A program made the position numbers and the translations under genes. Below the pieces are notes generated by a model that saw only the letters and a list, made by a program, of their open reading frames with translations, was not told where the DNA came from and made no database searches. Source: Sarea resinae (lineage: Eukaryota). From it: a stretch of DNA of 64,000 nt. Each line of letters opens with the position of its first letter. The first letter of the stretch is position 1. Positions 47,376-64,000 of this stretch are shown here, piece by piece. The stretch is taken from contig JAPEUD010000002.1 of NCBI GenBank assembly GCA_026026165.1, positions 124,001 through 188,000 on the forward strand, given 5' to 3'.

Positions 47376-48760
47376 ATGGCTCCCGCTGCAATCATCGATA
47401 GAATCGTGGACGTGGTCCAGCCCAAGAAAGACACTCTCGGACTCCCCGCACCCACCAGAGCGCGGCTGGAGAAAGCTGGCATCGATCTCAGCCAGGGCTA
47501 TCCGTACCGTCCAGCTGCTCCCAAGTATCTCGACGATGTCTTCGAGATCCGCAACGACGAGCGCGAGTACGTCGACGCGGGCTCTCGAGCGGACCCGGAG
47601 AAGAAGGCCCTACTGAGCGCGGCCAAAGAAGTCATCCACTTGACACAGCACATTGGCACGGAGCTGGTTGGCATTCAGCTCAAGGACTTGACGGCCCAGC
47701 AGAAAGATGAGCTCGGTCTCTTGATCGCCGAAAGGTCTGTCGTCTTCTTCCGTGATCAAGACATCTCTCCGCAGCAACAGAAGGCGCTGGGAGAGTGGTA
47801 TGGAGATATTGAAGTTCATGTAAGTGCTGCATCCACGAGCCGACGACAAACGATAGACGATGCACGATAGATCTGACCGCCACGCAGCCTCAAGTGCCCC
47901 AGGTTCCAGGTGTGCCGGGCGTGACCGTGATCTGGCCCGCACTGCAAGCCACCGAATCGGCCGCCAGCTTTCGCAAACCCGGCGGGGCGTCGAGATGGCA
48001 CAGGTATGTTGATGCAGATATTCGAGGCGGCAAGTCCTGACTCTCATTTCTACTAGTGATTTGGTCCACGAGAAGCATCCCGCTGGAGTCACCCATCTCC
48101 GTAAGTTACCCACAAACCCTTTCACTGCATGAACGGCGCTCTAACCAGCAATATCGCTCCAGACAACGATACCATTCCATCACGTCCGTATAATCTTACT
48201 ACGCCATCCTGGGCACTTATCACTGCGTAGGAGTCGTAATGACTAACCATTGTACAGTTGGCGGAGACACGTTATGGGCCTCTGGCTACGCTGCCTACGA
48301 AAAGCTCTCCCCAGACTTCCGCAAACTGATTGACGGCAAGCAAGCCGTCTACCGCAGTGCGCATCCCTACTTGGACCGTAGGAACCCCGAAGCGGGCCCC
48401 AAATACATCGAGCGCGTACACCCTTTGGTCCGCGTGCACCCGGCCACGGGCTGGAAATCCCTCTGGGTGAACCGCGCCATGACCGATCGAATTGTCGGTC
48501 TGGACAAGGCCGAGAGCGACCTGATTCTCGGATATCTTTATGATGTCTATGAGCGCAACGTGGATATCCAGGTGCGGTTCAAGTGGACCCCCCGGACAAG
48601 CGCCCTATGGGATAACCGCATCACGATCCATAATGCCAGCTGGGACTATGAAGGTAAGGAGCCCAGACATGGGACGCGAGTGACGGCGTTAGCGGAGAAG
48701 CCGTATTTCGATGCCAAGGCGCCTACTAGAAGGGAGGCTTTAGGCCTCTCTGTTGATTAG
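47376..48760 (+). CDS. TauD/TfdA alpha-ketoglutarate-dependent sulfonate dioxygenase (Jlp1-like)
   Basis: IGTELVGIQL, LLIAERSVVFFRDQ, WHSDLVHE (HxD), GGDTLWASGY, VHPLVRVHPATG, LWDNRITIH; introns 47821-47887, 48004-48056, 48101-48162, 48184-48257 (21-nt micro-exon 48163-48183). Confidence 0.93.
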
Positions 48761-49306
48761 TTTGAGCTGCCTCAGATTAGTATCTCACGACTATCCATAT
48801 AAGTAGTCAAATCAACGATGAGGTTCAAACATCACATCTTTCGGTCGATTGACATTTAGAATTGCTTTGAATTCCCAATCCCCCTTATGTAGGTAAATAG
48901 GTAAGGGCCCTCCATTTTATACCTTGAGATATACACCCCGGGGTATAGACGCACAAGTGGGGTAGATAGTCTTATATACACTAATTGAAAATTATACCGC
49001 GTGCTGCCGAGAGCAGAAGCGCTCCCACAGTGCTGGTGAAGACGTAATGGAAGGTCAATTGTGACGAATCCGAGTGAAAGCGGAACACTCTTTATTGCCT
49101 GAAGCTCCTGGATCTGTTTTTTTCGGTCTTATTGGTAGTCTCAGGGCTCATAGGAGACACCTAGTCGGTGGCGCAGCAATGGAATGAAAACAGTCCGCTG
49201 GACACCTCTGCAGCAGTCTCAACTCTGGCGGATGAAGCGTTGTGCAGCAAAGGAGGCTTTCTTCGGGTTGAGGCGATAACGGGATGTAGCTCTGGGAGCA
49301 TTCACA

Positions 49307-50916
49307 TCATTCCATCTCATGCAGTCCAGGCTGTTCCCGTACAGGTAACTCGCTCGGAGGGCTCGCAGGATCAAGCTCCGTAGCCAAAGCCTTGTCGTAT
49401 TTCGTATTCCCTCCGTGCGCCTCCGCGGCATTCGAGTTCGGCCCTTCTGCCCCTAGCTCTGCTCTCTCCGCCTTCTCGGCCTCCTCCTCGCCCCCAGGTA
49501 CAGGCTGGTGGCGCTTCCGGTGATGAAAGAACCAGGCACCTCCAACGATAGCAAGCACAACGGGCACGCCGACTCCGATCCCGACGCCGATGCCAATCTT
49601 CGAACCAGATGAAAGACCGCTGTGGGGCTCGTAATAGCCAGTGTATTTGGCACTCTTGACCTTTTTCTGGTCGGTTTGGCCATTGCAACTTAGCTCTGTG
49701 ATATTGCGTGTCTTGTTGAGAATTGCAAACTCAGTGCAGTCAAAGTTGTGATCCGTCGTATCAACTATAATGGAGTACCCATCTTCGAATCTAGGGAAGC
49801 TGACACTGTGTTGAAAGTCAGACACGAGTTCCATAATAGGCCTGAAGGCCGACCTACTTCGAAAACGAGCCATTGAGCGTGATCTCACTCGAATCTAACA
49901 GAGAAGCCAATTCGAGCTGCTTTAGTGCTGTATTTTTCGAAAATACCATAAAACTTTCGACAGAGAGAACTTTTGGCATGGACAGTAGACTTAATTTCGG
50001 GTTGTTCATAATATATAGATCCTCGATCTGGCGAAATACTGGTAATGAGACATTCGCCAATTCCGAATTGTTTGCGATGACGAGACTGAGTTGGACGGTG
50101 CCGAGGACTGGAAGCTCAATGGAGTGCAGATAGTTATTTTCCTGAAACGCTATGCTGCTGGTGACATTTTGTAGAAGCGGCGCCGAGAAATTGGTAACTT
50201 CGCTCACGTTCAGGTTCTTGACGGACTGAAGGCTTGGGAACGAAAGGGCCGTCTGCCCATTGGCAATCCCGTTACCGTTACTGTAGATCAGAACGTCCCC
50301 TGTGGCATTGGCGAAAGACAGCTGGATATCGCTCAGGAAAGGGTTATCAGTCACGTTCACTGCATCGACCGATTTCATGTTGAAACCCTTTAGCGAAGTC
50401 AAAGAGGTGTCTTGAATAACGACCGAGGAGCAATTGCTCAATCCGGTATCCAACGATAAACTCGTAAGATTGTACAGATTGTTCTGTAAGGCGATGCCGT
50501 TCCCTACAGTAGTAAGATTGGGTAGGTCCAACTCCAAGAGATTTTCTAGCTGGATAATGGACAATTTCCCGCCAATCTCCCTGAGACTGGGGAAGTTGAT
50601 GCGATTCAGGTCAGGGACGCCTTCACAGTAGAGGTCACCTCCGATGGTGGTAAGTCCAAGGAATGAAATATTTTTCCCGGCTCCAGACTGTATGAAGACA
50701 TCACCGGGAACACTGATACAGGAGGATAGCTGATCTGCCGTCGTTGCATTCGTCACCGTGTTCGAATAGCCGTCGCAATCGATGCTCTGCCCTGAAAACC
50801 GCGAAGAAGAATCAGTAGCTGTCAACACAGTTATCTCGGAGTGGCCCACCCCAAGTAAGCCCCACGATAGGCAGCGTCGCCCAAAGGAGCCTCAGAAGCA
50901 TATGGTCCAAGGCCAT
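49307..50916 (-). CDS. ECM33/Sps2-like receptor-L-domain (LRR) surface protein with a single TM helix and cytoplasmic tail
   Basis: Signal peptide MALDHMLLRLLWATLPIVGLTWG; LxxIGGxL / FPSLxxV repeats; GLSSGSKIGIGVGIGVGVPVVLAIVGGAWFFHHRKR TM + stop-transfer; introns 50792-50849, 49806-49857. Confidence 0.85.
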
Positions 50917-52364
50917 GGTGATGCTTGGCCCGAAGGACTATGACATCCAGCTCCCGCGGTGAGGAAGCACGTCTCTGAATAATGTGAAGCCGGTCATATG
51001 AGCGAAGGTGCAGCAACAGAACAATACTTTATCCGATGACAGAGCCGGACCCTAATGCGATAACAACGAGAAGGCGGCACAGACATGGCAGGGCGAAGCA
51101 GGGGTCACAACCAACAGTTGCAGGCTTCGCCGTCCCGTCACCCATTTGTCGGACGGGGCTGCAGGGTTTCGTACGATTTAAGAATGCTACGAAGCTCTTC
51201 GCTATGCCTTAGTCGTACCTCGTGCACACTATTTGGGCCCCAGCCAAGCCAATCCGCAGGCGGTGCAAACGCGAGAGGCCTTTAGCTCCAAAAGGCAATG
51301 GATCCGCTGTCGTTAGCTCTGCGGGACTGGCGACGATCGTCGAGGTAATAATGAGTCGTTCGATTCTTCTTATGTGTGTATCTTGAGGGTCGAAAGTGAG
51401 AGATGGTCACGGAATCATTGCGATTGTTTGCGTTGTGAGCGCCTTCATGAAGATGCCGCCGATTGGGCGGGTCAAGCCAGCCATGAAGAGATGCGAAGCT
51501 GGATACAGATCGTGTGAAGCGAAACAGATAACATGAAGGCTGGAAAGCCGGAAGGCAGAACAGCGTAAGACGGACGAATATTGAGTGACAAGGGACGGTA
51601 CTAGACTGCGACGATGTCTTGTTATTGGTGTTCTGCGGTGCCAAGAGACTTGTAAGACAGTCCAATGCAAGCCAAAAACGCGAGGGCACACACATGGCGT
51701 TCTCTTTGACCTGACCAGGCTTAGATGACCAGTAGACGTGCAGGGCATTGGATCCCTCGTTCCCTCAACCACTGAAGCGACCGGCGGACCCATCCTGTAA
51801 TTTGATCTCATCGATCAGAGCTGATTAGGGTGATGATGAATTCAGGGTCTCCAGCCCAATTGTCGGCCGGCTCCAACAGAGTACCTCTTAGCATCTCGAT
51901 CACCCGGGGTCCGGACGGAGCTTGATAATCTAACGAGTTACGAGCCCTCTTGAAACGGAAAGATACCGTCCAGAGGGCTGCAACCACCTCATAGTACTGC
52001 AGCATTAGGCATTCGACCTGTTCCGACCAAGGTTGATTTCAGAGTCAAATCTGTCAGCAACGATGGTAGCCAGCAGTATGAACGGCTACCGCCTTTCAGC
52101 CTAAATGAACGTGGCACCCTTGCGCGGAGTAGAGTAGAGGTCGACCAAGAGGTTGCAAAGACTAATTCCGCACATACCTTAGTACGGAGTAACAAAACGT
52201 GCCGGCTACATAGAGTTCAAAAGTAGAGGGTTTGGCCGCCGCTTTTTAATGCCCTTTTACCTAGCACAGTGCCGCTTTAAAGTGGCAACCTCTGTTTTAT
52301 AATGCATGTACTTTTTACCTTAGGCAAAACACTGCACACCTCCTTAATAATCTAAGGCTAAGAT

Positions 52365-53250
52365 ATAACCTGTGTTGCTAGCAACTTAGGCAATTATATC
52401 TTCTACTATCTAAAGAGTTAGGTACCTTTACTATAGCAAGGCTTTTAGGAAAATATTAGTACTCTACTTATAATAAAGAGTTTTACTAGAAGTTCTTATC
52501 TAATATAGTCTTAAAGACTCTTTAGTAGCTCTAGTTTTAGCAACAACTAAACTTTCTATTTAGTGTGTATAGTAAATATAGTAAGTGTAAGTTTCTTAGC
52601 TATTACTACTATATATACAACTAATTTGCTTTATTATAGGTTTTATACTTTTATAGAATATAACCTAGATATCTATCTCTATTATATTATAATAGAGAAT
52701 CTATAGGCTTATATAACTTAGTTTTTAAATAATAGTTAGATTATAAAGCTTAATACAATATATATAAGAATGTAGTTTTAGAGGATAATATACTAATAGT
52801 GTTTATATTAGCTATTACTTTTTCTTCTTACTTAAGAGATAAAGAATATAAGCTCTTATTATTATTAATAAGTATTAATACCTCTAACACTATATAGTAT
52901 ATTAGAACCTATTTAAAAGAAGAGTATAAACTTAAAACAACTACTATAGATAAGCTAACTATAAGTGTTAATAATTTATTTGTAATACTTTATTATTATT
53001 TTACCTTATATACAGATTATTTTACAACTAAATAAGAATAGCTATAGCTTGTATTTGTCTATATAATAATTGTATATATATCTATATAACTGTTATTATT
53101 ACTAGCTTTAGATATATATATAGACACTCTAGTCTATAGAGATATTAAACTATTTAAGATAAAAGACCTAGAGAATTCTAAGAAGTATCTTAGTATTAGA
53201 AAAGTATATACACACCTTAATAAAGAGAAAAGAAATAAAGAGACTTTATA
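52365..53250 (+). pseudogene. DUF3435 tyrosine recombinase ('captain')-like gene, N-terminal half, heavily RIP-mutated
   Basis: From 52898: YIRTYLKEEYKLKTTTIDKLTISVNNLFVILYYYFTLYTDYFTTK*E*L*LVFVYIIIVYISI*LLLLL..TLVYRDIKLFKIKDLEN; reversing RIP transitions gives KPTMSVDDL..LHHH..TDYF.TERERLQLA..AYTSTRP..LL..LVYRDIELF..DPE; preceded by CTAAC..TAG acceptor. Confidence 0.75.
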
Positions 53251-53599
53251 AGTGCCTATACTATTATAAGAGATTAAACTAGATTGCACTAGATAAGTGC
53301 TAGATAGTCCTAAAGATATAGGAACTGCTAAATTATAATAGCGCTACTATACTTAATAGTTGTTAAGTGTGTCACTATCTTAGGTCTTACTACTAATATA
53401 TCTTAAAGAACTTAAATAGGTAGCAGAATAAGCGTATCAATTAATATAAGCTATTAGCCTATAGCCTAGTAACTAAGTAATAAGAAGAAGAGAAAAAAAC
53501 TAATGTGCTAACTGCTTGCTTAACTAAATGCTAGAAAACTAATAACTAAATAAATGTATTAAGAACTAATAATACCTCTCTTCTAACTCTCTAAGGAAT

Positions 53600-55500
53600 A
53601 TAACCCTACTACTAACACCTAATAACTAAGCTATTACTAGTTTACTCTATTACATTCTTCTCTCCTATAAAAATAAAGTTAGCTCTTAACTTTATAAGGA
53701 TAAGAAAGAGATGCTGTTAAGGAAAAAGAATAAGAGAGAGCGCTAAAATCACTTTCTTATAGCGTGTTGTAGTAGGGTTAACAAGTTAGTTAGTTATATA
53801 GAGAGCAGTTAGAGAGATAGGTTAGCGCAGCTGTTTATTATAGCACTATTTCTTACTTTGTAAGTAGTTTCTAGTTCTTTAGTTTATTATACAATTTAGT
53901 TTAGATCTTCTTATTAGTTTAAGTCTAGCAAGCTAATAAGTTAGGTTATTTAAGTGCGTTTTATATTTAGTTCTTAATTGTTTAACATATGTATCTAGTG
54001 TTTTACTCTTACTGCTATTACTGTATCCTATAGTCTACTATATGTATCCTCTACTTCTTACTCTTAAAGAAGCAACTATTAAAGCCCTTTATAGTGTGTC
54101 CTAGTAGATTAGCAAAGAGAGCTTAGAGTAGCCTGCTTATATGCTTTAAGTTGCTTATATAGAGTGTCTACTTAGGTACTTACTAAGTAGGTAGAGGTAG
54201 AAGAACCTGCCTAGGTATAGGTATTAAGTACCTATACTCTAATTAACCTGCCTAATAAGACCTAGTAGGTAGGTGTAGGTACCTATTATATAATATAAAG
54301 ATAGTAGCTAAAATAGCATAGATTGTAAGGTATGTTTTATAGAGCATTAAAAAGCTGCTATTACTCTATAAATATTACCTATATATATTACTAAGTCTAT
54401 TAAGTCTTTATTATAGACTAAGTAAAGTAAAGACTAAAAATACTAAAAGGCAGAGAAAAACTATAAGCCTCTTATAACTTCTTATAACCTATGACTAGAA
54501 GACTAGAAAAGCCTTAATTATATCTCTAACTGCATCTCTAATTACATCTCTAATTGCGCTACTAGGACTAGTAAAACCTTAGAGCTAATGCTATAGAAAC
54601 TTAACCTATATATTACTAGAGATCTAGATACTAAAGCCCTTTATTAAAGCCTTAATAAACTAAGTGTCTTTATAATTAATAGTTATATAGTTCTAATAAA
54701 TGCAGGCCTAAAGCATATCTAGAAAAATTAAGTATAGGATAGAAGAAGAGATAGAAAAACTCACTTTTAAAGAACCTAACTATAAAAGCCTTAGTAGCTT
54801 CTTATAAGGTATATATAGCTAATAACTAAAAACAAAGCTCTCTAAAGAGGTAGTAGTAATAAGATATAACCTTGCAGACTAGGCGCTAGAAAGAGAGCTT
54901 TAGAATAACTAAATTAATAGATTTTTACAATCTCTTAATTTTATAGAGTGCAGATGCTATAGTGTTTAAATGTTACTATAATGTGTTACTCTTAGAGTTT
55001 AGAGACTAAGACTTACTGCCTAAACAAGTGTAATAGAGTTAGATTAGTTTAGGCACACTATAAACCTTACTATAACTATAAAAGGCAGTATCTTTATAAA
55101 CCTATGCTTTTATAGCATCTTTATAGGCCTTTTAGCGTTTAGCATATGTGCTAGTAGTAAAGCGTTGTCTAGTAGTAAGACAACCTTTACATGCTGCTAT
55201 ACTAGCTAAGTTCTTACATAGGGATTTACTACTAGTAATATAATAAGCCTTAGTAGCAGATATTCCTTTACTTTTTCCTTTTCCTTTCCTACTAGTACTA
55301 GAGATAGTCTTATAGGCAGTACACTTAGTACAAGCTATTATCTAGTAAATATTACTATTAAGTGTTACTAGTAGAGGTAGAAAAGAATAACTTACTGTAT
55401 TAGTGACTATAATTATATTAAGAGAGTAAGAGTGTAGTGTAGAGAGTGCTAAAAGAGAATCTTTAGTTAGTATTAAAGAAAGAATCTAGAGAGTTGTTTA
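53600..55500 (-). pseudogene. RIP-destroyed intron-containing gene of unknown function (putative cargo)
   Basis: Minus-strand splice donors GTAAGT (55011-55016) and GTGAGT (54759-54764); codon-like texture; no family recognised; limits approximate. Confidence 0.35.
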
Positions 55501-55618
55501 TAGTTAGGAATAAATAGCTAAGTGCTTTTATAGTCTTAAATGTTACCTAAATGTGTTACTATTAAGCAGTAGTTCTTAAACTCACCTTAACCTTAAAACT
55601 TAAAGAGCACTAAGAGAG

Positions 55619-56113
55619 AAATCTTAATAATGCTAATAATAGAAGTGATAAAGTTTATTAAGTCTTATTAGTTTAATAATAGAAGTGACAAAGTTAATAA
55701 GAGAGAGCAATCCTCTTACTATAGGAGAAGGTTGCTAATAATATAGGTAGTAAGGTTAAATTAAGTAGTAGACCTATATAATATTAAGGTAAATATTTAC
55801 TGCAAGGTATATACCTTAGTTAGTGTTATTAGCTAGTTAATAAGGTATATACCTTGCAGTAAATGTTATTAACTAATTAATAAGGTATATACCTTGTAGT
55901 AAATGTTATTAACTAATTAATAAGGTATATACCTTGTAGTAAATGTTATTAACTATTTAATAAAGTATATACCTTCTGCCTAAATCTTATGTGCCTAGTT
56001 CTACTATGCAATTTAACCTTACTACCTATATTATTAGCAACTTTCTTCTATATAAAGAGAAGTGCTATTTTTTATTAACTCTATTACTTCTATTATTAAT
56101 ATCATTAAGATTT
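55619..56113. repeat. Long inverted repeat enclosing a 40-bp tandem array of AAGGTATATACCTT palindromes
   Basis: gttgctaataatataggtagtaaggttaaatt (55731-55762) is the exact reverse complement of 56010-56041; arms extend imperfectly ~120 bp; palindromes at 55804, 55842, 55882, 55922, 55962 (variant). Confidence 0.92.
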
Positions 56114-56237
56114 CATTAATTTTATTAATCCTATTAACTTCCTAACTGTTTAGGCAGTAGAAAGTTATAAGATAGGTGGCTAATTACTCTCTAAATCACT
56201 TACATCACTTATAAGCTCCTTTTAAGATAAGGCAGCT

Positions 56238-58520
56238 ATAGAGAATACTAGCATTATAAAGAAGAGGTGAGTTTTAAACTTCTAAGTGAAATAGAGTAAG
56301 GTAAAACTAACTTCTTCCTAGAAACTATAGCCTACTAGCAGCTTAGGCCTAAGAGTAATATATTAAGGTAATAATAATACTATAGAAGGCTTATATTAGT
56401 GTAAGAAATAACAAAAGCTTAAGAAAGCTAAATCTAGTATAACTAAGCTAAATCTAGAGATAGAAGAATATAAAGACAATAATTAACTGCCTATAGATCT
56501 TAATAATAGGGCTGTAAGTAATTCTCTATATAGTAGTAGTAGTTAGAAAGGAAATAGTAATAAGAAGATAGATAGTAAGGCTAGGTAATGCATTTAGGTA
56601 ATAATATCTGTAAATATCTGCTAATAGTGCTACTCTAGTAATAGCAGCAGCAATAAAGTTAAGATAGTCTTTATAGTTAAGAAGATAAAGGCAAAGTTCT
56701 TAGATAAGGTTAGAAAAGCAAAGTTCTTAGATAAAGTAGAAAAGGTATATAAGAAGTAGAAGTAGTAACACATCCTAGTAACAATTTTAAACACAAAGCT
56801 AATAATATAATAGGACTATATCTAAGAGATAGAAGTAGAAAGAAACTAACCTTAATAATAAGCTAAAGAGCTTAGACTCTCTTACTCTTAGAAAGAGATA
56901 TCTAAGGTAATATATTTAGGTAATATTATTTGCTAGTGACTGATATTAGTGCAACTTGTAGTGCAACCCCTATAATATCCTCTTATTCTAAGAGAACATT
57001 TAACCTAGAGATAGCTAGCCTAGTAGAACATATAAAAGCCTGCCTATAAAGATATTATACTAGTAAAATAAGGCCTAGGATAGTTCTCTACAGCAAATAA
57101 CAACAGATTGCTAGAGCGTAGCTTAAGGAAGCAAAGTCTAAAGCATTAGAGTTAGAGCTAGATAGTAAACTTAGCGATACTAAGTTTAAAAAGACACTAA
57201 AAAAGCAGATAGAGTAGATAGGAAAGTAAAATCCACCTTAAGAGGCAAACTCTATTATAAGAATAATTACGCTAGTATAATAACAGCATAATAATAAGAC
57301 TTTAAAGAGACTGTTATAGACTCTAAAATAGATAAATTAATAGAACAACGCTTTTTCCTCTACTAGTCTGCTAAGTAGATTACTATACAGCAGCAAAAGG
57401 CTATTAAGGTAGAGAAAGCAAAGGCTAAGGATAATAAGCAGATAGTTAAAGATATTGTTAATATCTTACTACTTAAAGATAATAGAGATAGCTAATCTAA
57501 TAGTAGTGCTAATCCTAAGGTAACACTTTTAGATAACGTTGTTATAGGTTAGAATAGTTTAGTTAGGATTAGTTAGCAAATCACATGCATTGTTCTTAGA
57601 GCATGTAGTTTAAAGAGGATAGTGTTATGTTAAGAGGTTAGGATTAATTTAAAAAGTTTATTAGTTTAGTTATGTTTAGTTTTTTAGGCAGCTTTTAAGC
57701 GCAAGGCAGTTCTTTATTATTTAGTTAAATCAATCAATTAAGAGTTCTCTTACTACTTCCTTCCTAGAGAAGCAGTCACCTTCTAATCCCTTTGCTTTAT
57801 GCTATTCTACTAATTATACCTTAGTAGTAGGTTGTTAAGTAGTTGTTATAGCTATCTTGTTGACTATATAAAGAGTTATTAGGACTGTCTAGGTGTTCTG
57901 CTTTAGCACTGATTTAGTGCGTCTATTTTGTCTCTCTACAACGTTTCTTTACAGCATTTGTCTAATTAGTTTAGCAAAGACAAAATTTAGATAAGCCTAA
58001 CTTATTATTTAGAGTATAGGGCAAACGCATTAGAAGTCGCTTACTAAAAGTAGTCTGCTGCTATAAGAGAGATATCTACTGCTATAGCTATAATAATCTA
58101 GTAGAAGCTAGTGATCTTAATCTAAAAGAGGCAATGTTAGAGTTTATAGAGCAGGTTAAAGACTATACAACCCTCTCTAACAGTGATATAAAGGCTAGGA
58201 CTAATTTTGCTAGGTTTAGCAATTTAGAAGCAGAAGTGTTTCTATTATCTAATAAGGATATTAACCTAATCTTAAGTAATAAGGAAGACTTTATACTGCT
58301 AACTATAAGAGAGAAAACTTAGCTAGAGGACATTCTTAAAAGAGAGGACCTTACTATTACTAGATCTGCTATAGAGAAGGCTCTACTAATAACAGCTAAG
58401 AATGTTCTTATTAATGCAGAAGATAATAAAGATAACTCTACTAATAATACTAAAGAGAAGGACTCTAGTTCTAGTGCTGCTAAGGATAGCAATAAGTAGA
58501 GAGGTAGTTATAGCTAAGTG
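56238..58520 (+). pseudogene. RIP-destroyed multi-exon gene encoding a charged/coiled-coil protein (putative cargo), interrupted by a solo LTR inside an intron
   Basis: Intron 56267-56321 GTGAGT..CTAAC..CTAG and further GTAA donors; residual ORF 58134-58322; intron GTAACAC...TTTACAG split by the LTR at 57540. Confidence 0.5.
57540..57940 (+). mobile_element. Solo LTR (401 bp, TG...CA) with 4-bp ACGT target-site duplication
   Basis: acgt|TGTTATAGG...CTCTACA|acgt; aligns end-to-end with LTR 58633-59032, differing mainly by C->T/G->A. Confidence 0.95.
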
Positions 58521-58632
58521 GCTTTTCTTTATTAGTCTATATCTGCCTAGGGGTAGATTTTCACTTTTTCTCTAGAATTTAGTTTACTAAAAAGGTAACA
58601 CTTACTAGTAACATTATATACATTAATCACGT

Positions 58633-59032
58633 TGTCATAGGTCAGAATGGTTCGGTCAGGATTAGTCAGCAAGTCACGTGCATTGTTCTTAGGGCATATA
58701 GTTCAAGGAGGATGGTGTTACGTTAAGGGGTCAGGATCAATTTAGAAGTTCATCAGTTCAGTCATGTTTAGTTTTTCAGGCAGCTTTTAAGCGCAGAGCA
58801 GTTCTTTATTCTTTAGTTAAATCAATCAATCGAGAGCTCTCCCACCACTTCCTTCCTAGAGGAGCAGTCACCTTCTGATCCCTCTGCTTCGTGCTATTCC
58901 ACTGATTATGCCTTAGTAGTAGGTTGTTGAGTAGTTGTTATAGCTATCTCGTCGACTACACAAGGAGTCATTAGGACTGTCTAGGTGTTCCGCTTCAGCA
59001 CTGATTTGGTGCGTCTATTTCGTCCCTCTATA
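58633..59032 (+). repeat. 5' LTR (400 bp) of the gypsy element
   Basis: Starts TGTCATAGG after ACGT; ends CTCTATA (RIP of CTCTACA) just before the PBS. Confidence 0.93.
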
Positions 59033-59033
59033 T

Positions 59034-59057
59034 TGGTGACCTACGCAGGGCTCGAAC
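59034..59057 (+). promoter_or_regulatory. tRNA primer-binding site TGGTGACCTACGCAGGGCTCGAAC
   Basis: Begins TGG 1 nt after the LTR; complement reads GTTCGAGCCCTGCGTAGGTCACCA (T-loop, acceptor stem, CCA). Confidence 0.85.
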
Positions 59058-59634
59058 TGTTTGCATTCACGCAGTCAAGTGCGATGCTACTAAGCACATA
59101 ACAATGTGGATTGAAACGGCATGTTGAATCAGAAAGAGTGATATATCAGTGAGGAAGACAGGACATTGATACTATTAACTGCCGAACAGATCAGATCAGT
59201 CAAAGCTATTCAGACAGGGCTGCCAGAGACCCTGTAAATCAGAGAAGGAGTGCTTCGGATTCAGATCAGAGATTGCGCTCTTGGCGAACTTCTAGACAGT
59301 CCAATAGTTACACGACAACCCAGACTTATTGTGGAACTCAACTCTATAACCAAACGAGAAGCCGAACGACATAATGCAACGTCAACAGATCAGACGAGTT
59401 TTTCGCTGTCATCGGCAAACAAGTGAGCAGAGTTCTTACGCGAACCCCTCTAAGGTAAAGGGGTACCCCTAACAAAACGACACGAACAAACAGCGACAGC
59501 GGAGTGCAGAGAGAGAGACTTCACAAGGGGAGGAGAGGATAAGAAGAAAAAGTTGCCACTGCATATCGAAAAAGCTTGTCCTTCAGATCGTTCAAGAAAC
59601 CACAAGAATTATTACACCAGCTATTATCGCCGCT

Positions 59635-62040
59635 ATGTCTGCCTCATCTACTAGCTCGAACGCAAGTCCTGTTGCAGGATTGACTCTAGCAGTGTCTACT
59701 CTGCTAGGAGAAAGCACTATAGGGTCTTCTAGCCTTCGATACTTGCAGCCTATGCCTTCGCCTAGAAGTCATAGTGTGCCTTACTTCACTAGAGTTAATG
59801 CTACTGAATTCCTCGAGCGATATAAAGGAATGTGTACAGACTACTAGCTTAGCCTTAAAGAAGCATTCAAGAGGCTGCCACGCTACTGTGAGAGCATTGT
59901 GGCTAGGAACATCAAGACTATGCCGGAATTCAAAACTGATTAGGAAGAATTCAAGAAATCCTTGCTAAGGGAATACGCTGATTAAGATGTGGAACAGCAG
60001 ATCAACTCCTGTGCCTATCTTAAAGCATTGAAGAATAGAACCAGAGCCTAGAAGACAGCTGAGGAAATTCGCTATTACTGCCGCCAATTCATGAGCATCT
60101 CCTACGGTCTCATCTAGAAGAATAAACTTGATAGATACTCTCGCCTCCTCTGGTTTCTACAAGGTCTTCTAGAGACTATGCAAGCGAAAGTTATTTCTCA
60201 GGGACACATCAACCTTGACAAGTACAGCATCGCCGACCTAGACTTCAAGAAAGTATACGACCTAGCTATCAAACAATGCGAATCTATCTGCGCTCTTCAA
60301 AAACTCAATGAAAAGGAACCGACGAAGACTGTACAACTGTTGATTAAGAACTAGAAGCCAGTCCTAAAGACCGACTCAGCCGAACTGCTCGAGCCGCCTG
60401 TAACTTCTAAGCTAACTCAGGCAACAACTACCGCTAAGACCGACAAGGCTATCAAGGATATTACTACCTAGCTTGCGAATCTTGTCCTGCTAGTCAAAGT
60501 GGCAAACGAGAATGCAATGACAACAGCCAAGCTGCTTGCCTCTCTACCTGTATCGTGGAACTAAGGCGCGGCACAGAATGGATCAGCAAATGCTCGACCA
60601 GCACCTAGTGCTGCGGTAGCCTCAGCTAGGAACGATGGCGAATTGCCTATGCTAGGATGTTAGGGGTGTGGAAGAACTGACTATGGCGTTGCTAATTGCC
60701 CTATGATTAGACAGTTACTCGCCTATTCTAAAATCCACTTCAACGAGCGAAACAGAATGTGCCTAGGACCTAAAGAAAGCGGCGGACCTGAATTGAGGAT
60801 TCCTAGAGGAGAATATCGCGCCGTGTTTGCTGAGCGAGAATATAAGAAGTGGTACAATCAGCGCAAACAAGAAATCAGAGTCAACTCTATTCGCATCGCC
60901 TCTATCAGTGCAAGGGACCTGCAAGCCAATGATACTGATAAGGAGGTGGAAGACAGTGAAAACTCTGCCTTAGTTCAGGCAGCACGTCAACTAGAGAAGA
61001 TTTTAAGACGCAGATCAGACCCTACTCGAAGTGGGAAGGTTCTCGACCCTTAGAGTAGAGTACAGAAACAGAGGATCGAGAAAGAAGACAAACTCCTGGC
61101 TGCGAAGAACATCCGCCTAGGAACCTATCAGAGAAACCAGTATACAGAGGAGGGAGATGTCGCATACACAAGGACAGACAAAGATCGACAAACATCTAGA
61201 CCGTCTAGGACTTCAAAAGAGGTAAAGTTCGAAGTCCTAGAGGAGATGGAAATAGATCAAGCATCAAACAAGAAGCAAAGGCGAAGGCGACTGTCAGACG
61301 TGCTGAAAGAAGAATCGAATCCTACAGGACTAGTTAGAAGGATCCTTGATCAACCGCTAGCACATGTGACTGTTCGAGAGCTCTTAGGATGTTCTCTAGA
61401 CGTCTAAAAGATTTTCTTCAAACAGCTGGCGGAAGACTAGATCAAAGCAACATATTAATCGCCGTCTAGAAGTGAGGAAAACAGGTCACAGGACCTAAAA
61501 GGGAATGCCTCTCAAAGACCAGTAATGGTTAGAAAGGTGTCTAGCTCGAATTATCAGGATCAGGAACCGACAAAGGATGTGCTGTATGCAGCTAGGTGCA
61601 TGATAGCGGATGTGAGCATAGAAGGAAGCCTATAGACTAGGGCCCTCCTAGACAGTAGAGCTGAGATCTGTCTGATAAGTCTTAAGATAGCACAGAATAT
61701 TGGTATTAGCTAGACTCCGAATCCAGCTACCACTATGGTTGGCATCAACGGAAAACCTGCGGCATTCGTCGGATGCGCAGAAGCAGTCGAAGTTGAAGTC
61801 AGAGGGGTTATCACGCGGGTGCCGATTTTTATAGCGGACTATTCTGATCGACCGCTTGTTCTTAGACAGCCGTACTAGATAGCATCCTAGATGAGAACAG
61901 AGGTTAGAGAAGATAGGACAACTATGTGTACTGTCTTCTCTGAAGACTAGAAGAGGTCAAGGATGTTTAGCGCCGCTCAGATAGGGAGCACTTCAGACTG
62001 TGCGTACGACGATGTGTTTCCTGACTATTCAAAAAACTAG
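59635..62040 (+). pseudogene. gag-protease ORF of the gypsy element (RIP stops)
   Basis: ORF fragments at 59635 and 60703 and the protease motif at 61642 share one frame, ending TCA AAA AAC TAG at 62040. Confidence 0.85.
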
Positions 62041-62080
62041 GTGGCGGGCACTACCTCGAGCAGGTGTCTGTAGCGCCTAT
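62031..62080 (+). promoter_or_regulatory. Programmed -1 ribosomal frameshift signal (A AAA AAC + downstream stem)
   Basis: Slippery heptamer in the gag frame immediately before TAG; the -1 frame is the RT frame; GCGGGCAC...GTGTCTGT can pair downstream. Confidence 0.75.
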
Positions 62081-64000
62081 AAGACTGGTTGGGAAAAACA
62101 CAGAGGAAGACTCGATAGAAAGTGTGACGCGAATAGATAAGCCTTTAGAGATGTCGCAAAGTCTGGACGTGAACTCCTAGACTGACCAGAAGTTAGAGAG
62201 CCTGATCAGACAATTCCAGGCGCTGAAGGTAACAGAAGGGGAGACATTTCAGATGTCGAAAAGAATGCCGGATCCTGAGTTCGATCCGGGACCTAGGAAA
62301 GACTCTGTTCGTGTAGAAACGCTGTACAAGAAGAAAGGGATAAAGGTGAAACCAGTCGATTAGTCAACCTCAGACAGGAGCACGCTAGGAGGAGCAAGGG
62401 ATTGGAAAAAGGCCGCGAAGGAAGCTGATTAGGACGACCTGAAGAAGTCTAGAGGAGACAAGTTAGGCTAGGAAGCTTAGGATTTCGACGCCCTGTTAAT
62501 TGAGAAGTTTTCAGACCTTCTACAAGGAACGAGACTCACCTTAGAGCGACTAGGAAAGATGATTGTTGGCGATGATATGACTGACCGAGAAAAGGAGATG
62601 CTGACCGCTATGCTTTATAACCGCGAAAAGGCACTGGCATAGGAGTTCTCAGAAATTAGAAGGGTTTGTCCTAAGGTTGCGCCTCTGCAAGAGATCTGAA
62701 CTATTCCACATGAGGCATGGCAGGCGAGCAGCTTCTTGGTTCCGCGGGCACTGACCGAAACGATTATCGAGATGCTTTAAGAAAGGCTTAAGAATGGTCT
62801 CCTCGAACCCTGCCATAGGCCTTACCGAAACCCCTGGTTCCTAGTGAAGAAGAAATCCGGAAAATATCGCATGGTAAATGCAGCAATAGCAATCAACAAG
62901 GTCACGATACGAGATGCGAACCTCCTACTGTCAGTAGAGGAGTTTTCAGAGGAATTTGCAGGAATGCAGGTGGCCTCCTTAATTGATTTCTTCTCTAGAT
63001 ACGACCAAATCGAGTTAGCAGAGCATTGCCGAGATTTGACCGCGTTTATAACACTACTTGGCTTGCTACGTCAGACTACCTTACCACAAGGGGCAACCAA
63101 CTCAGTGGCACAGTTCGTGAGGATTGTTACTAAAATCTTGGCCGACCATATACCAAGACTAGCTAGGCTGTTCCTTGACGATATCGGCGTAAAAGGGCCG
63201 AAGACAAATTACAACAATGAGGAGATCCTACCTAGCATAAGGCGCTTTATGGCGGAACATATTCAGGCACTAGACAAGGTCCTTGTTGACATCGAGCGGT
63301 CAGGATGCACAGTTTCTGGAGAAAAGTCACAGTTCGGCATGGGTGGCATAAAAATAGTCGGATATGTATGCGACTCAGACGGCAGGCATCCTGACAGCAC
63401 TAAGGTCCTAAAAATTGTCGAATGGCCAGAATGTAAGAACGTCACAGAAGCCTAGGCCTTTATTGGAATTTGCGTCTACTATCGAATTTTTATCCAGGAC
63501 TTCGCGATCATAGCCAGACCAATATTTATCCTATTCAAGAAGGATGTCGATTTTACCTAGGGACAAGACTAGATTTTCGCTATAGACCAGCTAAAGTACG
63601 CTCTGACTTCTGCACCCGCGCTTGTTACAATAGTCTATAGACTAGAAGGAGGAGAGATAATCCTAGCTGTCGACGCAAGCTTGTTAGGTTAGGGAGCAGT
63701 GCTAATGCAGATCAACCTACATACTAGAAAGCGACACCCTATCTGGTTTGAAAGTGGTCTGTAGAACGATGCTGAAAAGAAGTATGATGCTAGGAAGCGA
63801 GAATGCCGAGGACTACTCAAAGCGTTGAAGAAAGTACGAGTCTATTTGTACGGCTAAGAATTTACAGTGGAATCAGATGCTAATACGCTTGTGGCTCAAC
63901 TAAACATGCCAGCATCGGACCTCCCTAGAGCATTAGTTACGCGCTGGCTAGCCTGGATACAGCTATTTGACTTCACAGTCCGCTATGTCCCTAGACAGAA
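62037..64000 (+). pseudogene. pol (RT, RNase H) of the gypsy element, RIP-inactivated, truncated by window end
   Basis: ORF 62844-63455 RT core; GPYRNPWFLV, DASLLG*GAVL, YDARKRECRGLLKAL RNase H motifs. Confidence 0.9.

Follow-up and report, generated by a model that had tools for sequence, protein, structure and literature searches.

The locus described here raises the question of what lies at the edge of an AT-rich, RIP-mutated block and, particularly, whether one end of a Starship, with its captain recombinase, is preserved there. The window, that is, the whole 64-kb stretch of DNA that was analysed, corresponds to C56:124,001-188,000 in a fungal assembly of 25.5 Mb and 143 contigs; positions beyond it are given as window-equivalents. 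After the first 2 kb, the GC content is 46-57% up to ~52,200, and core genes are found to the left of this point (e.g., those for a HECT ligase, riboflavin synthase, aspartate-semialdehyde dehydrogenase and ribosomal protein S6e). The host gene nearest to the element (Table 1) is presumably ECM33-like. Beyond ~52,200, GC drops to ~0.2-0.3 and RIP indices become strongly positive, and the downstream stretches place the right limit of the AT-rich block at window-equivalent ~102,700. An open Tc1/mariner-type transposase frame of 403 aa, apparently not RIPed, was also observed amid core genes (L045:4018-5226, minus strand).

The original prediction placed at this edge a captain of the DUF3435 type, in a frame from 52,898 riddled with stops that became readable after reversing C->T and G->A changes. 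Four stops were indeed found in this frame (53,033, 53,039, 53,045 and 53,087), and all seven of the motifs quoted are compatible, in order, with its codons after such a reversal; in 5.3 kb of RIPed DNA nearby, six of them are never matched in full, and the three-residue DPE is matched 13 times. The homology is visible without de-RIPing as well. When the frame, whose first position is the exact start of exon 3 of the gene, was read with X at stops and left unrepaired, a phmmer search over 1.84 billion proteins gave five matches (best E 9.6e-16), all of them DUF3435 (PF11917) proteins. Similarly, an intact captain used as query, P0007, matches 52,880-53,242 (E 1.2e-9), and a profile of 20 captains matches 52,889-53,242 (E 7.6e-14) and 52,608-52,844 (E 1.5e-5, profile columns 45-123). 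By contrast, no family scored in a Pfam scan of the RIPed fragment, and a genome-wide search with PF11917, which gave five matches at three other places, missed the window captain. On the strength of these sequence comparisons, we regard the Starship captain at ~52,400-53,247 as real. Elsewhere in the genome, two further DUF3435 fragments score above the Pfam cut-off (C35:422,993-423,256 and C104:95,559-95,984), the former of which obtains a low score with the Tardis-type profile and is possibly from a different family; a match on C40 (E 0.07) was discarded after inspection, which shows no captain there.

The mutations that separate this captain from its relatives have the bias expected of RIP. 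In comparisons with three relatives, the ratios of C>T/G>A changes to the reverse are 229:66, 223:63 and 233:53, versus 37:47 in a control with two intact relatives. Likewise, against nine homologues, 22-33 mismatches per pair are explicable by RIP, with null means of 8-12 and null maxima of 18-23. RIP is heavy and flat from ~52,400 to the LTR at which the captain breaks off, and weak over the element's first 100 bp.

Three captain exons can be recognised between ~52,400 and 53,247, with introns at positions that match, in a DNA alignment, those of an intact metagenome relative, L103 (Table 1). Exon 1 is marginal by the RIP-aware protein score alone (9.2 versus a null maximum of 9.7). Two exons thus precede the frame from 52,898, and the start of the gene is near 52,400; the end of the span first proposed (53,520) falls within the LTR and not in the Starship. 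Among the invariant captain columns, those with Arg and Lys are taken by us to be catalytic from what is known of tyrosine recombinases; the position of the first Arg is occupied by the stop at 53,087.

Table 1. Features of the element, its captain and the adjoining insertions (window positions).
Feature	Position	Strand	Basis and remarks
Host gene nearest to the element, outside	49857..50891	-	Receptor L domain; 1.3 kb from the insertion site
Conserved ungapped 5′ terminus	52182..52278	+	Likeness to L103, L105 and C28; contains the TTAC at 52,257
Left direct repeat/target motif of Tardis type, TACGGAGTA and following A	52183..52192	+	Left boundary of the element
Left terminal inverted repeat, probable	52193..52210	+	Inferred from position and likeness to both ends of the C28 element
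Captain exon 1	52396..52586	+	Aligns in DNA with first exon of L103; weak; no ATG left, start region 52,396-52,410
Captain intron 1	52587..52639	+	GT...AG intact; position as in L103 intron
Captain exon 2, RIPed	52640..52847	+	Profile match (E 1.5e-5); 36% identity to L103 (E 6e-10)
Captain intron 2	52848..52897	+	Donor mutated; aligned to L103 intron
Captain exon 3, start of DUF3435	52898..53247	+	phmmer, P0007, profile and L103 matches; Lys region near exon end
Captain intron 3 stump	53248..53264	+	Donor aligns with L103 donor; ends in the 4-bp insertion site of the LTR
LTR, family A (~11.8-kb retrotransposon)	53265..53654	-	Short internal stub behind; interrupts captain
Solo LTR, family B	53768..54093		Matching 4-bp target duplication
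hAT-type element D1	54160..64000, on to window-equivalent 100,818	+	Self-BLAST; nested inserts
Solo LTR, family C, nested in D1	57533..57943	+	Self-BLAST, flanks, depth
Ty3/gypsy-order element C, younger, nested in D1	58633..64000, past the window	+	LTRs 97.5% identical; protease, RT, RNase H

The 3′ half of the gene, with the HxxR/Tyr residues, had been noted as missing after 53,250, and it is in fact absent from the whole 51-kb AT block, where the best other score with either a plain or a RIP-aware profile is 21.5 (versus 93 and 56). At the other loci fetched, none was found beyond C28, C104 and weak matches, and a genome search with two intact captains, in which only top candidates were scored and a heavily RIPed copy could escape, gave none either. 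Captain homology ends at the donor of intron 3 and the LTR begins 17 nt further on, which argues that the gene was interrupted in place and its remainder lost. Consequently, the internally deleted, non-autonomous derivative suggested at first is not the simplest reading; the rest of the captain was probably lost through recombination between nested hAT copies. With a stop at the first Arg and the exons for the remaining residues absent, the R-K-H/Y-R-Y set of an autonomous element is incomplete, which counts against an active Starship but not against a derelict one. The relic cannot make a recombinase and is probably not movable in trans, as no right end is recognisable.

If the captain belongs to a Starship, an element end is expected close to it. 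As predicted, no other gene lies between the captain and the GC-to-AT edge, and it points inward; its start region (52,396-52,410) falls within ~2 kb of the 5′ end, as expected of a Starship captain, the end being at 52,183. Here lies TACGGAGTAA, that is, TACGGAGTA with the following A, in its only copy in the window, 213 bp before the captain start region and on the correct strand; within the 174 kb of C56:114,001-288,000, the left repeat is likewise the only exact copy of TACGGAGTA. Genome-wide (25.5 Mb), the 10-mer has 53 forward and 50 reverse copies, a count from which the probability of a chance occurrence is ~0.0005 within 250 bp and 0.015 within 7 kb. The 9-mer has 714 forward and 738 reverse copies versus 97 and 90 for the controls, an enrichment of ~7.8-fold over the reversed control. 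An Rfam scan of 48,000-56,000 gave no match and, thus, no 5S rDNA target.

The similarity between termini provides a test that is independent of these counts and the stronger of the two. Among 19 metagenome loci, three are close relatives with sufficient upstream DNA (L103 and L104, which are one element found twice, and L105), and they carry the motif 235 bp (L103/L104, with one mismatch) and 319 bp (L105) before the captain; on that strand, an exact copy is lacking from nine distant loci, and the upstream DNA of the remaining seven amounts to 200 bp or less. Inside the motif, 51 of 87 positions of the window are identical, without gaps, to L103 and the same number to L105 (null mean 21.8, maxima 37 and 38), while just outside it identity falls to 9-14 of 50. 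The two metagenome elements behave in the same way towards each other (36/40 inside the terminus, 11/50 outside). The terminus is common to all three close relatives and to a pseudo-captain paralogue in this genome, which carries it at C28:20,287. Since similarity starts at the motif and collapses outside it, the left end of the element is placed at 52,183. The central claim of the original prediction, a RIP-destroyed Starship captain at the left end of its element, is borne out. At the level of the assembly, the boundary is covered by one contig from read run X1 that spans 50,870-53,289 with no difference and reaches 25 bases into the LTR, although X1 may be the source of the assembly and hence not independent; runs X2 and X3 do not cover the region.

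The family label follows from the nearest labelled relatives and from the target motif. The best match, P0002, leads to P0007 (57%) and from there to relatives in Eremomyces (192051, erebil1_192051) and Delphinella (295949, delstr1_295949), both of which are fam03 in the supplement of PMC11162782, where two other locus tags were not found. Family 3 is Tardis, whose target is given as TACGGAGTAG (Table 1 of PMC12153272). Among the matches listed from the starfish supplement, all 15 of the “DR up” rows with the motif end in TACGGAGTAA, and the captains of the two such rows looked up are fam03. Thus, the window element has the TACGGAGTA target or direct repeat of Tardis (fam03), and its probable TIR may be compared with published Tardis TIRs, which start ~3 bp after the direct repeat. 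We infer the label Tardis from neighbours in sequence rather than from a tree, and a profile search for other captain families returned the same clade only, with no outgroup.

Two other readings of the edge have to be considered against this evidence. In the original prediction, TTAC was the family cue, and the element would be a TTAC-bounded, Hephaestus-like Starship, formerly multicopy and internally deleted, with its left end at 52,257 or 52,315. TTAC is present at both positions and shares with the Hephaestus target an A at N7, and the steep drop in GC starts near 52,280-52,380. However, these TTACs lie 75 and 133 bp inside the motif, at a density (~9 per kb) that is the background here, and three of four TTACs at the opposite edge of the block likewise have an A at N7. 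The conserved terminal similarity begins 75 bp further out, at the Tardis motif, the labelled relatives of the captain are family 3 and not the TTAC-using Hephaestus, the end is TACGGAGTA(A), and the break in the captain coincides with an LTR. The comparison of termini has, therefore, already largely refuted the TTAC-bounded version, which is left as a highly improbable one. We give marginally less credit still to the idea that the locus is an orphan DUF3435 pseudogene near a TACGGAGTA promoter motif that occurs there by chance. While the genomic enrichment of the 9-mer and the lack of a right end would be in agreement with this idea, the similarity of the 87 bases inside the motif to independent elements is far above the null and ends at the motif.

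Comparison with known systems agrees with the Tardis reading. Like Tardis h1 of Aspergillus fumigatus (fam03; PMC12153272, PMC11162782), the window element has an inward-pointing DUF3435 captain as first gene, and a TACGGAGTA target whose left repeat is extended by an A towards the element. The captain is <1 kb from the end in both cases (~500-780 bp in four tabulated Tardis elements versus 213 bp in the window). Unlike Tardis, it has a captain reduced to a 5′ fragment with stops, a TIR that differs from those of Aspergillus, and no right direct repeat, right TIR or cargo boundary, and it is a single derelict copy and not an active 80-kb element. HEPHAESTUS (fam02; PMC10104507) belongs to the same captain clade 1 and is susceptible to RIP, and in intact relatives of the window captain, as in its captain HhpA, Tyr takes the place of His in the catalytic motif (column Y357); HEPHAESTUS, however, targets TTAC(N7)A, and the window TTACs are internal. 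Derelict Starships (bioRxiv 2021.12.13.472469; the term is recommended in PMC11162782) are, likewise, dead elements with RIP and nested TEs, although the Macrophomina Derelict keeps its cargo without a captain (bioRxiv 2021.12.13.472469), whereas the window element keeps the left end and half a captain, with its cargo undefined. Degraded Starships are thus already described, and the window element has the features of a derelict one and lacks those of an autonomous one.

The captains of L103/L104, L105 and the C28 paralogue are the top-scoring relatives of exons 2 and 3, and share with the window the ~100-bp terminus and the intron positions (checked on L103). They differ in keeping the 3′ catalytic exons and, in the case of C28, also a probable right end and one cargo gene. 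The C28 copy is a second Tardis-type element, complete-looking and ~4.9 kb long (C28:20,287-25,151; L069:8287 to L070:3151), with the same 5′ terminus, a full-length captain with several stops and an apparently intact alpha/beta hydrolase gene as cargo; its right end consists of an inverted-repeat arm and TACGGAGTAG, and paired TIR arms are seen.

The LTR in the captain heads a nested pile of transposable elements of ~50 kb. Its family, A, has 25 other matches in the genome, many of them paired ~11.4 kb apart, and read depth jumps ~50-fold at this LTR, whose edge was set from 16 other copies. When compared with L022, the LTR (53,260-53,654) shows RIP-type changes at CpA (33), CpG (17), CpT (5) and CpC (4) sites. 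Further inside, D1 holds the solo LTR and the younger Ty3/gypsy-order element of Table 1 as well as another family-A retrotransposon with two additional D copies; a hAT dimerisation domain was found in copy D2. The 8-bp flanks match in the D2 and D3 pairs and are mismatched in the D1 pair, which suggests that recombination took place between two D insertions, with the intervening DNA removed or displaced, so that the two sides of D1 were not originally adjacent. The hAT-type element carries, additionally, a histone H3-like gene (~54,900-55,300 of the window in D1; L037:1001-8500 in D2, with a Pfam Histone match of E 2e-10 in D2), and H3-like genes borne by hAT elements are reported (PMC6710886, PMC3538342).

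The direct repeat is observed on the left side only, and no empty-site allele was found. Its right counterpart was sought without success in 312 kb of downstream C56 sequence and with two genome-wide patterns, which alone covered the ~311 kb of the far contig end, and no right arm matching the left TIR was found. Three exact copies of the repeat lie downstream on the plus strand of C56, all of them without a TIR, and a matrix that combines TIR and direct repeat reaches at most 12.5 on C56, below the top null score of 13.4. Also rejected as a right end was a 17/18 match at window-equivalent 121,130, as its score is within the null (90 versus a null top of 93). Of the genome-wide end patterns, one gave two matches and the other gave C28, which was built in, and four that failed on inner similarity, so that no convincing end was obtained. 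The same 21-mer was seen at near-equal offsets at C11:26,167 and C118:26,161, which would be in line with duplicated contigs or with a segmental duplication.

Pseudogenes and a small group of secondary-metabolism-like genes, all of which may be cargo or host accessory DNA, separate the pile from the core genes, which resume at ~134.5 kb. The group extends over window-equivalent 113-132 kb (L040:8995 to L042:8223) and comprises CobW, two short-chain dehydrogenases, SnoaL, FSH1, anthrone oxygenase, MFS and methyltransferase genes; a backbone synthase was not found in the frames that were scanned. Beside the pile, a stop-containing zinc-finger-like gene (window-equivalent 103,156-105,648) has a paralogue at C85:100,810-103,250 that is 67-73% identical. 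A further stretch, on the minus strand at window-equivalent 100,822-102,102 (L039:6822-8102), is single-copy and heavily RIPed, and has a weak Pfam match to dual-specificity phosphatases (E 1.2e-4).

Two questions, that of a former duplication and that of a surviving cargo, divide the remaining interpretations. The RIP of the captain had been read as the mark of a formerly multicopy element, a claim that is unproven. In fact, BLAST detects no second copy in the assembly of the 1.1 kb from the element end to the LTR, and X1 depth over the captain stretch (373 versus mostly 335-390 on flanking unique DNA) is that of single-copy DNA. Additionally, unique DNA to the right of the pile is RIPed equally over 1.3 kb (GC 0.16-0.28), an effect that fades ~300-400 bp past the last repeat. 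Leakage of RIP into single-copy DNA is reported in PMC9453070 and would suffice to explain the RIP of the captain. Alternatively, the same Tardis left end may have been RIPed when the element was duplicated in one nucleus, the second copy having segregated away since. RIP of duplicated Starships has been demonstrated experimentally for a two-copy Hephaestus (PMC10104507). At a GC of 0.17-0.26, the captain stretch exceeds the LTR next to it (0.26-0.31) in AT content, and its RIP is flat over ~900 bp and fades towards the element end. On the other side, the unique DNA at the right edge indicates that leakage can reach such a level, provided that this DNA did not itself belong to the duplicate, and the C28 paralogue is only ~53% identical, which is too low for the RIP threshold. 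Taking these points together, we lean towards leakage and hold the former duplication to be a possible, though less probable, source of the mutations. As for cargo, the element could still be largely present, with the ~31 kb of accessory-looking genes at window-equivalent 102.7-134 kb as its cargo and a decayed right end. The pseudogenes, the zinc-finger-like gene with its C85 paralogue and the secondary-metabolism-like group that precede the core genes would fit such a proposal, which we nevertheless find unlikely: within this stretch there is no exact direct repeat and the best TIR-DR score is 10.6 (null 13.4), a scan of 68 long frames and 24 six-frame translations revealed none of the typical auxiliary families of Starships, and, judging from the flanks of D1, the two sides of the pile were not originally neighbours.

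We consider it very probable, then, that the locus is the left end of a derelict Tardis-family Starship whose captain was interrupted by transposable elements, cut by a deletion and RIPed. In the history that we propose, the Starship would have integrated through its captain tyrosine recombinase at TACGGAGTA, ~1.3 kb upstream of a host gene, and an LTR retrotransposon would then have inserted into the third intron of the captain. Further LTR and hAT elements would have piled into this retrotransposon, and ectopic recombination between two hAT copies would have removed the rest of it, together with the catalytic 3′ exons, a stretch of the cargo and, probably, the right end. RIP would finally have erased what remains.

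With no defined cargo, the element is of modest weight, but it shows a Starship dying in place, with an LTR in a captain intron, nested transposable elements, a deletion and RIP. It also indicates that scans with the Pfam DUF3435 model miss relics of this kind, which are picked up by a family profile and by the terminal sequence. More tentatively, and at slightly worse than even odds, we propose from the aligned ends that a ~100-bp ungapped 5′ terminus may be general to Tardis-family Starships, extending beyond the published direct repeat and short TIR, and that it would likely be a recombinase-binding array that outlasts RIP better than the captain gene. Among the mostly open-access papers listed on Starship/Tardis direct repeats and TACGGAGTA, no description of such a conserved Tardis terminus was found, and supplements may bear on it. 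If the proposal is true, the terminus would be usable as a probe to find and date derelict Starships missed by DUF3435 searches, and would help to test whether distant fungi share the same abundant host motif as Tardis target. Together with the 7.8-fold enrichment of the target, the shared terminus bears on the nature of this motif and on its recognition by the captain, a question raised in PMC12153272.
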